Shown here: piece after piece, positions 10,018 through 12,720 of the stretch
How positions within the stretch are numbered: position 1 is the stretch's first letter
How the letters are laid out: every line of letters begins with the position of its first letter
Origin: Escherichia phage PSK1
Sequence record: PP541512.1
DNA length: 39,615 nt
Direction: 5' to 3' (one strand)
Position numbers and translations under genes: made by a program
Notes under the pieces: generated by a model
Seen by the model: the letters and a program-made list of their open reading frames with translations, nothing else
What the model was told of the DNA's origin: nothing
Databases searched by the model: none

Positions 10018-12720
10018 ATGTCCACGATTACACAATTCCCTTCAGGAAACACTCAGTACAGGATAGAGTTCGACTACCTAGCCAGAACGTTTGTTGTTGT
10101 TACGCTGGTGAATAGCTCTAACCCTACCCTGAACCGTGTACTGGAAGTTGGTCGAGATTACCGATTCCTTAATCCAACGATGATTGAGATGTTGGCTGAC
10201 CAATCAGGTTTCGACATCGTTCGTATTCACCGTCAGACTGGAACTGACTTAGTGGTAGACTTCAGGAATGGCTCAGTGTTGACAGCTAGTGACCTGACCA
10301 ATTCAGAGCTTCAGGCTATCCATATTGCAGAAGAAGGTCGAGACCAAACTGTTGACTTAGCGAAGGAATATGCCGATGCTGCTGGTAGCTCTGCTGGCAA
10401 CGCTAAGGATAGCGAGGACGAAGCACGACGAATCGCTGAGAGTATCAAGGCATCTGGTCAAATTGGCTATATTACCCGTCGCTCCTTCGAGAAAGGCTTC
10501 AACGTTATAACATGGAACGAGGTGCTGCTATGGGAAGAGGATGGTGAGTACTACCGCTGGGATGGTACGCTTCCAAAGAACGTTCCGGCCGGTTCAACAC
10601 CTGAGGCATCTGGTGGTGTTGGTATTGGTGCATGGGTTAGTGTTGGTGATGCCGCTCTTCGGGGTCAGATATCTGAACCGGATGGTGCAGAGGAGTACCC
10701 AGAACTGCAAATGGCGCGATGGCGTGATGATGGTGATGTGCGTGGTTGGGGTGCTAAGGGAGACGGTGTTACGTATGATACTGCGGCTTTTGTTGCAGCC
10801 GCAAATGCCGTGGGTGAAGGTGGTGTGATCCGCGCGAGAGGAAATTACCTTCTCAAGAAGATTACAATCCCGCCAGTAACCATACAGGGAGACGGGCAGG
10901 GAAAAACCATCCTGACATTTGATAACGCATCTGGTCAGGATGATGGTGTGGTTTTCACTGCACCAACGAAACAGGATATTGAATTTGGCTGCCGCCACCT
11001 TTCTATAAGAACAGTAGGAGGTCACGGGCGGTATGCAATCAACTGCCCACGAGGTGCAGGGTTAAACGGATTGAGACCAAAGCCTACCTTTAAGCATTTA
11101 TCTTTTTATTCAGAAAAGACGAACGCCGAGTTCGAAGGATTTTCTCAGGTTTGGTCATGGCAGTTTACGTTTCTTCTGGGTGACGCTTGGAACTTGACTA
11201 TCAATCGTATTGATGCGGTTGGTTGTTATCAGGCTAAGATCGATTATCGAACGCAGTTCCTGGACGGCTTCATCAGAAGCACCCCGGCGGAAGGTATTCT
11301 GTCGATGCGATTAGAAAATACGACGTGTCACAATATCGCGAACTTTTTCGAGATTCAGCAGAAGACCTATTTCTGTATGACAAACATCGACTGCGCGCGA
11401 TCCCTAAGGGGTGTATACGACGCTCCTGATCGTGTCTTCGAGACAAACCGCTCAGCGTATGGTGAGTCCATCTGGACCAATGTTATCATCAACTCTCAGC
11501 TCGAACCTGTCAGGCTTGATAATCGCTTCTATCTCGTGGCGAATGGAGTCGCTATACATAGAGCAACCAACGCATTCGATCACGGTCAGGAGTGGGTGGG
11601 GCTAAATCTCACTCGCGCTCGCGCGTGCTCATTTCATGGGTTGGAGATTGGGACCGCGCGAGGATATTCCGGTCGCAAGGTTGGCGTCCGTCTCGATGCA
11701 GGCGATGCAAACAACTTCACGAACGTTGCGTTCGGCATGTTAGATGTAGGGTTTCAGGTCGGGGATAATGCGTCTAGTTACGGTGCTAATCAGGGTACGA
11801 ATGTCGTCAACGTCTCGGTTATTGCCGATCAAGATGTTTTGTTCGATCTCCAAAGTTGTCGGAACTTTCATTGCTTTGGGTACGGGAAGTCCCCAGCATA
11901 CTCATTGAACACTTTCCTGACAGTGGGGAGCGATGCTGGCAATACGTACAATTTCAGCGGCATTGAGGGCTATGGTCAATATACCGACAACTCTCACTAC
12001 TGGTATAACTCTGCTGCTGGTGCCAATGAGAAACGTTGGAGATTCGATACTCGTTCAGGATTCATTTTAGCAACTCAAACAGACACGGGTGCGGTGGGGA
12101 ATAATGGCCTAATTCTGAATCGCTCTGGGTTGGCTATAACGAAGGCTGAGTTAAGAGCCGATCCGTCCAGCGGCTATGTTCTCCTGACAGGCTCATCGAT
12201 ACAGGCAGCAAACTACATCAAGCCAACTGTTGATAACGCATTCAGCAACGGGAACGCGTCTTTCCGCTGGTCAACGATTTATGCTGGCACCGGATCGATT
12301 AATACCTCCGATGCTCGCCTGAAGACCGACGTAAGAAGCATCGCTGACGCGGAGCGTGCAGTAGCGCTGAAAATCAAAGGGCTTATCAGGCGCTACAAGT
12401 TCAATGATTCCGTGGAGAATAAGGGTGAAGACTCAGCAAGGTATCACTTCGGTGTAATGGCTCAGGCTGTTTCCGACGCTTTTAGGGAAGAGGGGTTAGA
12501 CCCCGATCAGTACGGTATGTTCTGTTACGACAAATGGGACACCCAGTACGCTCCAGAAGTTGCGAAGCGAACGATCACCGTAGTGAATCACGATACAGGT
12601 GAAACGTGGGAAGAGGAAGAAGAATACGAGACGGGAGGTCAGGTTGTCGTGCTTGAAGCCGGTGATCGATACGGCATTCGTTATGAAGAGCTTCTCTGCT
12701 TCATCATCGCAGCGATTTAG
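10018..12720 (+). CDS. Tail fiber/tailspike (gp17): T7-type N-terminal adaptor, beta-helix enzymatic domain, C-terminal self-cleaving chaperone domain
   Basis: N-terminal ~150 aa resemble the T7 gp17 N-terminus (FDYLARTFVVVTL, DYRF). GWGAKGDGVTYDTAAF is a hallmark of pectate-lyase-fold depolymerases. SDARLK (Ser764, Lys769) fits the peptidase S74 intramolecular chaperone dyad. Confidence 0.85.
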   Translation: MSTITQFPSGNTQYRIEFDYLARTFVVVTLVNSSNPTLNRVLEVGRDYRFLNPTMIEMLADQSGFDIVRIHRQTGTDLVVDFRNGSVLTASDLTNSELQAIHIAEEGRDQTVDLAKEYADAAGSSAGNAKDSEDEARRIAESIKASGQIGYITRRSFEKGFNVITWNEVLLWEEDGEYYRWDGTLPKNVPAGSTPEASGGVGIGAWVSVGDAALRGQISEPDGAEEYPELQMARWRDDGDVRGWGAKGDGVTYDTAAFVAAANAVGEGGVIRARGNYLLKKITIPPVTIQGDGQGKTILTFDNASGQDDGVVFTAPTKQDIEFGCRHLSIRTVGGHGRYAINCPRGAGLNGLRPKPTFKHLSFYSEKTNAEFEGFSQVWSWQFTFLLGDAWNLTINRIDAVGCYQAKIDYRTQFLDGFIRSTPAEGILSMRLENTTCHNIANFFEIQQKTYFCMTNIDCARSLRGVYDAPDRVFETNRSAYGESIWTNVIINSQLEPVRLDNRFYLVANGVAIHRATNAFDHGQEWVGLNLTRARACSFHGLEIGTARGYSGRKVGVRLDAGDANNFTNVAFGMLDVGFQVGDNASSYGANQGTNVVNVSVIADQDVLFDLQSCRNFHCFGYGKSPAYSLNTFLTVGSDAGNTYNFSGIEGYGQYTDNSHYWYNSAAGANEKRWRFDTRSGFILATQTDTGAVGNNGLILNRSGLAITKAELRADPSSGYVLLTGSSIQAANYIKPTVDNAFSNGNASFRWSTIYAGTGSINTSDARLKTDVRSIADAERAVALKIKGLIRRYKFNDSVENKGEDSARYHFGVMAQAVSDAFREEGLDPDQYGMFCYDKWDTQYAPEVAKRTITVVNHDTGETWEEEEEYETGGQVVVLEAGDRYGIRYEELLCFIIAAI

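Follow-up and report, generated by a model that had tools for sequence, protein, structure and literature searches.

Gene 17 of Escherichia phage PSK1, a probable K1F-type tailspike gene with an exchanged beta-helix and autochaperone cassette

The DNA of Escherichia phage PSK1 (sequence record PP541512.1) was analysed as one stretch of 39,615 nucleotides (nt), referred to as the window. The sole large candidate receptor-binding gene in it is the open reading frame (ORF) at 10018-12720, and this gene, gene 17, quite probably encodes a sole tailspike built on the plan of phage K1F, in which the anchor of the genus Kayfunavirus is joined to a foreign cassette of beta-helix, beta-sandwich, stalk and S74 chaperone, the spike having been changed by module exchange. 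The architecture, the residues for autoproteolysis and the recombination boundaries were established in the current study, while the later steps, from assembly of the spike to its action at the host surface, are proposed by analogy with K1F endoNF, phi29 gp12 and T5 pb1.

Judged by its sequence, the window is a complete, circularly permuted coliphage genome (~39.6 kb) of a Kayfunavirus (K1F-like Studiervirinae, T7 supergroup). The 10 kb upstream of gene 17 are 92-96% identical to records of E. coli and Salmonella Kayfunavirus, e.g. ZCEC02 and HC13, and the 9 kb downstream are 94-99% identical to LI10P1, LNA5 and others. The neighbours annotated in those records are gp16, holin, gp18, Rz and terminase. 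From the identity of the flanks and the order of these neighbours the ORF was identified as gene 17, and its anchor lies between gp16 and holin, as in the gp17 of Kayfunavirus.

Gene 17 is shared with other phages in its first part only. In a megablast search of 50,697 phage records, 167 shared the gene as far as nt 752-773, and beyond nt 773 no match was found in these records. Pairwise blastn placed the end of homology at 10652 (with ZCEC02) or 10772 (with 22664UKE3-2) and its resumption at 12754/12755, 34 nt past the stop codon. Given this gap in homology, from 10652-10790 to 12754, the cassette comprises amino acids (aa) ~256-900, not 150-900. Its nearest relative, on a JGI metagenome contig (L003), was 78% identical at the nt level over 10573-12740, and the segment with Pfam domain PF18668 showed 62-73% identity to the cassette relatives versus 91% to the Kayfunavirus kin. 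Since homology to L003 begins at 10573 and the identities of the PF18668 segment contrast in this way, the left junction was placed in the linker/GWGAKGDG zone, which is common to both partners. To judge from these breakpoints, the beta-helix and the chaperone were exchanged as one unit, and on the right the junction follows closely after the stop codon. A preliminary description of this DNA had proposed that the receptor-binding part was acquired as a module, an idea that the nucleotide breakpoints bear out; the module is foreign as described, but it begins at aa ~256 and includes the chaperone and 33 nt past the stop codon.

The anchor consists of two known attachment domains. PF03906 (Phage_T7_tail) matched aa 10-115 (E 1.9e-16, 60.6 bits, cut-off 25.2), and the T7 gp17 structures 7boz, 8dsp and 8e4g matched aa 6-116 (E ~1e-16 to 1e-17). 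The Tail_spike_N domain, PF18668, matched aa 154-211 (E 6.9e-20, 71.4 bits, cut-off 25), and this region also matched 4oj5, 5w6h, 5w6f and 9occ in the PDB at ~1e-17 to 1e-21. Over aa 1-255 the protein is 91% identical in aa to K1F gp17 and more than 100 relatives, and over aa 1-~253 it is ~94% identical to a solved tailspike, 9vvr_A. The high identity through aa 1-255 therefore makes the genus anchor ~255 aa long, not ~150. Likeness to T7 gp17 had been described earlier for the first ~150 aa only; this agrees with the PF03906 and PDB matches over aa 6-116, but the conserved anchor reaches aa ~255, and a limit at ~150 misses the Tail_spike_N domain. A record labelled 'Acinetobacter phage vB_Aba_01KA' (PV615262.1) shares the gp17 anchor of E. 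coli Kayfunaviruses with 91% identity in nt; it is close in length to 'Escherichia phage vB_Eco_1RS' (PV615263.1), and its host label looks doubtful.

The sequence GWGAKGDGVTYDTAAF was found at aa 243-258, where the preliminary description had seen a pectate-lyase-type motif, and structural comparison confirmed that this region folds as a right-handed parallel beta-helix. The assignment of this fold is unambiguous, and by sequence the region matched PF12708 (pectate-lyase-like) marginally, below the gathering score; precomputed PF12708 matches are present in many homologues of the module. The family profile matched epimerases, glucanases and pectin lyases at ~1e-10 to 1e-11 over ~100 residues, all within the N-terminal cap, which is the only part of the beta-helix recognisable by sequence. 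The fold matches were, with their scores, the AlgE4 epimerase (2pyg, 34.7), the K5A lyase (2x3h, 32.1), a GH87 glucanase (7c7d, 30.4), CBA120 TSP3 (5w6f, 30.0), phi29 gp12 (3gq7, 28.7), and HK620, Det7 and many capsule depolymerases (22-27). K672, D689 and R702 are conserved in the distal beta-sandwich. For a GH58 endosialidase module, a beta-propeller sialidase, no catalytic-domain match was found in Pfam or the PDB, and the few weak endosialidase-related hits, to the N-terminal extension and the end of the stalk, stayed below threshold (PF12218 at E 0.15, and the last 35 positions of PF12219).

The C-terminal domain was recognised by sequence and by structure. PF13884 matched aa 764-826 (E 6.4e-11, 42.8 bits, cut-off 22), and the domain matched PDB sequences 7y5s (1.8e-23), 6eu4 (2e-20), T5 pb1 (1.8e-18), phi29 gp12 (1.2e-14) and K1F endoNF (2.5e-13); with the family profile, 3gud was found at 1.3e-29 and 3gw6 at 2e-24. 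In an AlphaFold2 model of aa 716-900, the predicted local distance difference test (pLDDT) score for aa 764-900 exceeded 90 in almost every block of 10 residues. This model shows helices and a long beta-hairpin tentacle, and the ten top Foldseek matches were chaperones of K1F, T5 and phi29 only (4.9e-12 to 1e-7; 4uw8 at 1.5e-10, 3gud at 8.9e-8), followed by the MyRF ICA. The motif SDARLK at aa 764-769 contributes Ser764 and Lys769, an S-x4-K dyad that the preliminary description had attributed to an S74 domain; its exact positions, the Pfam match and the PDB sequence matches agree with that attribution, as does the Foldseek comparison it had called for, in which 3gw6 was matched at 4.9e-12. 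The residues at aa 843-879 (12544-12654) form a long beta-hairpin, modelled with confidence, that contains the acidic stretch WEEEEEYE. The corresponding 'tentacle' of T5 pb1 is ~14 residues shorter, and only some homologues have such a hairpin.

The mechanism proposed for the autoproteolysis of T5 pb1 involves Asp1239, Arg1250 of the neighbouring chain, the Thr1263/Ser1264 scissile bond and Lys1269 (PMC4690869). By alignment these five residues map one-to-one to D739, R750, T763/S764 and K769, so that all five are present in the PSK1 protein. They are kept in 23-29 of 30 homologues (S764 in 29, K769 in 28), and an exact D739 or R750 is absent in about a quarter of the homologues. The released chain of phi29 gp12 (3gud) starts at SDERHK, aligned to S764. 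The stalk, aa 736-763, aligns to residues 1236-1263 of T5 pb1; it also matches the final 35 positions of PF12219 (End_tail_spike), at a level short of the cut-off (E 2.6e-4), and in monomer models it has low pLDDT, as expected of an interdigitated trimer segment. Cleavage between T763 and S764 is predicted to yield products of 83.5 kDa (aa 1-763) and 15.6 kDa (aa 764-900).

By analogy with the three systems named above, three 99-kDa chains would be aligned in register by the C-terminal domain. After correct folding of the trimer, Ser764, activated by Lys769, would cleave the T763/S764 bond, with Arg750 of the neighbouring chain and Asp739 providing the oxyanion environment. The chaperone fragment of 15.6 kDa would then be released, leaving a mature spike of 83.5 kDa, of which six trimers would dock on the tail via the T7-type domain. 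The beta-helix would bind, and probably cleave, a host surface polysaccharide, whereby the virion could reach the outer membrane; binding of a polysaccharide is what the fold and the family context would lead one to expect.

An active site is suggested by the pattern of conservation. D389, D458 and E483 are invariant across 33 homologues down to 23% identity, and D399 and E445 are conserved in at least 90%; the three invariant carboxylates point to catalysis. The preliminary description had called the protein enzymatic and capsule- or O-antigen-degrading, and both of these are what we infer here as well. The search of NCBIfam gave only a 16.8-bit match of the cap to rhamnogalacturonidase (cut-off 500). 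Hidden Markov model alignments to AlgE4 and the K5 lyase ended after the N-terminal cap, and the catalytic residues were not alignable. A glycoside hydrolase with carboxylate catalysts was tentatively favoured over a lyase, as about twice as probable. For the substrate there was a slight, equally tentative, preference for O-antigen over capsule, because an acetyltransferase gene follows the homologues in P22-like prophages and because O-serogroup modules are documented: in E. coli, the receptor-binding domains of Kayfunavirus and Lederbergvirus are O-serogroup-specific modules that are horizontally exchanged (PMC10408124).

Three other readings of the protein were weighed, two of which concern the beta-helix. 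The module could be lyase- or epimerase-like, acting by beta-elimination on a capsule that contains uronic acid, rather than an O-antigen hydrolase. The best fold matches do have beta-elimination-type chemistry on uronates, but hydrolase tailspikes (CBA120 TSP2/3, HK620) and GH87 score almost as well, and the sequence matches to lyases and epimerases cover the cap only, not the active site. Moreover, the invariant residues are carboxylates, whereas none of the His, Lys, Arg or Tyr bases of lyases and epimerases is invariant in the larger alignment (H438 is conserved in less than 90%, and only Y481 stays at the 90% level), and this reading was regarded as doubtful. It is unlikely that the beta-helix is a non-catalytic adhesin, binding a glycan or protein without cleavage, in which case the spike would not be a depolymerase. 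Three invariant carboxylates together with near-invariant polar residues, kept in 33 homologues down to 23% identity, form a pattern typical of active sites, and the highest fold matches are enzymes. To our knowledge, virtually all characterised beta-helix tailspikes of podophages are enzymes, which also counts against an adhesin.

The remaining alternative concerns the C-terminal domain, which might be kept uncleaved in the mature spike as a structural or receptor-binding tip. Cleavage is known here only as a prediction, the hairpin exceeds that of T5 pb1 by ~14 residues and is very acidic (EEEEEYE), and about a quarter of the homologues do without the exact D739 or R750, all of which could be taken as signs of retention. 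Against this, the protein has the five mechanism residues in full, spaced exactly as in T5 pb1 and K1F, the fragment released from phi29 gp12 starts at the aligned Ser, and the fold is that of released chaperones, and it would be surprising if the domain were retained.

Several points weigh against a self-cleaving, O-antigen-degrading spike of K1F type as favoured here. No enzyme class was assigned, because epimerases, lyases and hydrolases all stand among the top fold matches, and the best solved structure for the beta-helix is only 17% identical, in a family without a characterised member. The PF12708 match (aa 241-319) reached 24.4 bits where the gathering score is 27. The stalk is very short (~28 aa) compared with that of endoNF, and its match to PF12219 is below threshold. 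The structure models are of monomers only, and the hint at O-antigen comes from homologues of only 55-57% identity. There is also a small chance that the specificity or chemistry is one not described for coliphage tailspikes (e.g. proton abstraction on a uronic-acid glycan), which would make this a depolymerase family not seen before, aimed at a new E. coli surface glycan, since the family is uncharacterised and in structure comes closest to a C5-epimerase and a heparosan lyase.

The beta-helix family was found to be rare. With aa 255-731 as query, tblastn gave no match at E < 0.01 in the 50,697 phage records, and an exhaustive phmmer search of 1.84 billion proteins detected 79 representative clusters, of which 30 had E <= 1e-30. 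A scan of IMG/VR with the single protein found no match; with an alignment, it found 10 relatives of 57-60% identity, none closer. BFVD held one close viral model. Among GTDB species genomes there was one match, on a 20.5-kb contig (JAYOXR010000024.1) of a metagenome-assembled genome labelled Candidatus Nitrosopumilus brisbanensis, which is probably a mis-binned phage contig (L006). Complete E. coli genomes were considered as donor and rejected: only 8 of 5,426 gave matches, at 65-67% nt identity over 32-41% of the cassette.

At 43-68% identity, this module is also joined to PF09008 (P22 head-binding), PF18668 and PF03906 anchors in other phages and prophages. P0009-like tailspikes are carried by 14 E. 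coli genomes. The cassette was present at 55-91% identity in proteins of E. coli P22-like prophages (P0006, P0009) and of metagenomic phages (P0001, P0015/P0019), all of them without an annotated function or serotype; P0001, with a PF18668 anchor, is carried on the contig of a long-tailed phage with tail-assembly-chaperone genes. On L003 (JGI 3300011635; 2217-4679) the cassette relative is split by a single in-frame stop codon into ORFs of 424 aa (P0015) and 394 aa (P0019), which are 91% identical in aa to the first half of the helix and 79-83% identical to the sandwich and chaperone, respectively. This split may reflect a sequencing error, a pseudogene or read-through, and a Peptidase_S24 repressor-like gene lies near it.

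In one of the P22-like prophages (L005:7614-12408, E. coli GCA_034445465.1), an Arc/Mnt-type repressor gene lies before the homologous tailspike and a hexapeptide-repeat acetyltransferase directly after it, with an integrase next. It is possible that the acetyltransferase belongs to an O-antigen acetylation (seroconversion) cassette beside the tailspike. The O-serogroup of E. coli strains with a homologous prophage tailspike could not be read from the strain names, which give no serotype, and the literature on six strain names was unhelpful; an assignment by serogroup was dropped, in part since proteins of 55-57% identity need not share their specificity.

An atypical composition of the region had also been noted in the preliminary description. 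The guanine plus cytosine (GC) content of the cassette is ordinary (0.495, genome 0.502), tetranucleotide and codon usage are mildly deviant, and the observation thus holds only weakly. GC content was rejected as a sign of foreign origin, as the cassette lies at the 30th percentile of windows of equal size. Its tetranucleotide distance has a z of ~2.5 (top 4%), and in relative synonymous codon usage the distance, 0.104, exceeds that of every other ORF of similar length. Within gene 17 the conserved N-terminal part deviates too (GC at third codon positions 0.432), and the codon signal therefore does not delimit the module. A strong positive GC skew (0.21-0.23) was seen at 10201-11100, over the anchor, linker and helix cap. 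Both the recombination zone and Gly-rich coding sequence fall in this interval, and the skew is equalled only at 30.9-31.8 kb. Within the window, GC content is lowest at 15200-17100 (0.425-0.46), where the GC skew is negative and tetranucleotide usage deviates most. This stretch, just after the terminase gene, is the probable site of the physical ends of the genome and of the early region.

Table 1. Positions of gene 17, its predicted domains and adjoining elements in the window.
Feature	Position	Strand	Remarks
gp16	6048-9953		flanks gene 17 upstream
Putative T7-type (K1F-like) phage RNA polymerase promoter core, ACTATCACTATAGG	9954..9967	+	directly upstream of gene 17
Shine-Dalgarno sequence AAGGAGG	10007..10013	+	4 nt before ATG; read from sequence
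Gene 17, tailspike precursor	10018..12720	+	ORF listing; ATG start, TAG stop, 900 aa, 99.1 kDa
T7 gp17-type tail-attachment domain and helical neck	10018..10467	+	aa 1-~150; PF03906, T7 gp17 PDB matches
Tail_spike_N domain, PF18668 (CBA120 TSP1 / G7C gp66 type)	10477..10650	+	aa 154-211
Left recombination zone: linker and conserved GWGAKGDGVT motif	10651..10790	+	Kayfunavirus homology ends here
Right-handed parallel beta-helix, receptor-binding, putatively catalytic	10744..11922	+	aa ~243-635; C-terminal limit approximate
Exchanged cassette: beta-helix, sandwich, stalk, chaperone, 33 nt 3' untranslated	10791..12753	+	nucleotide breakpoints
Distal all-beta (sandwich-like) domain	11923..12222	+	aa ~636-735; strands at model residues 401-483, pLDDT 83-88
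Short stalk	12223..12306	+	aa 736-763; carries D739, R750, T763; precedes predicted cleavage site
C-terminal intramolecular chaperone / Peptidase_S74	12307..12717	+	aa 764-900, 15.6 kDa; PF13884

The sequence ACTATCACTATAGG occurs in 11 copies on the + strand (allowing at most two mismatches), where 0.25 would be expected by chance, at positions 2285, 9954, 15707, 19113, 22434, 24166, 25133, 27254, 33182, 36003 and 36991. The copy directly upstream of gene 17 was taken as a putative promoter from its likeness to the T7 consensus. Three further ORFs overlap gene 17 (10541-10828 and 11411-11605 on the + strand, 10594-11025 on the - strand) and are regarded as artefacts of reading frame within a conserved coding region. 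In several close relatives (MZ234011 etc.) the Rz gene is immediately followed by an HNH homing endonuclease, which is probably the reason why their megablast alignments to 12721-22000 of the window split into 4-5 pieces.

Modular exchange of tailspikes and S74 autochaperones are well documented. An anchor joined to an exchanged beta-helix and autochaperone is a known pattern and no new concept, while the beta-helix family itself is rare and uncharacterised; the module therefore probably targets a glycan of E. coli or related enterobacteria for which no phage enzyme is available. In K1F-type phages the host range is determined by the tailspike, and the mapped junctions, with a chaperone that travels together with the beta-helix, give a practical recipe for moving receptor-binding modules from one tailed phage to another, Kayfunaviruses and P22-like prophages included. 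The module could be of use in serotyping, in phage therapy cocktails and in the discovery of depolymerases.

Among known systems, the A-module of the AlgE4 C5-epimerase (2pyg) and the lyase of coliphage K5A (2x3h) differ in sequence (13-17% identity), and AlgE4 is a secreted bacterial enzyme without phage context. The pre-neck appendage of Bacillus phage phi29, gp12, has a different anchor and 15% identity in the helix, and differs also in its Gram-positive host and its teichoic acid substrate. T5 pb1 is alike in the five aligned autoproteolysis residues and the architecture of the beta-hairpin 'tentacle', which in T5 is ~14 residues shorter; it differs in being a non-enzymatic fibre with a bullet-shaped tip.

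The tailspikes that carry the related cassette (P0006, P0009, P0001 and P0015/P0019) belong to other phage types and differ in their anchors, which are PF09008 or PF18668 alone. In the PDB, the 'Tail spike protein' 9vvr_A (843 aa), for which no paper was found in the literature, resembles the gene 17 product in the region of ~94% identity, which includes GWGAKGDGVT, and in its S74-type end, but diverges completely beyond aa ~258, with only a 0.8-bit stretch matched in the middle region. Alike in genome position, promoter type and the plan of anchor, enzyme and S74 chaperone are K1F gp17 (endoNF) and the gp17 of other Kayfunaviruses. The centre of K1F gp17 is a GH58 beta-propeller sialidase, whereas that of the PSK1 protein is a beta-helix, and the chaperone of the latter has diverged and was exchanged along with the enzyme module.

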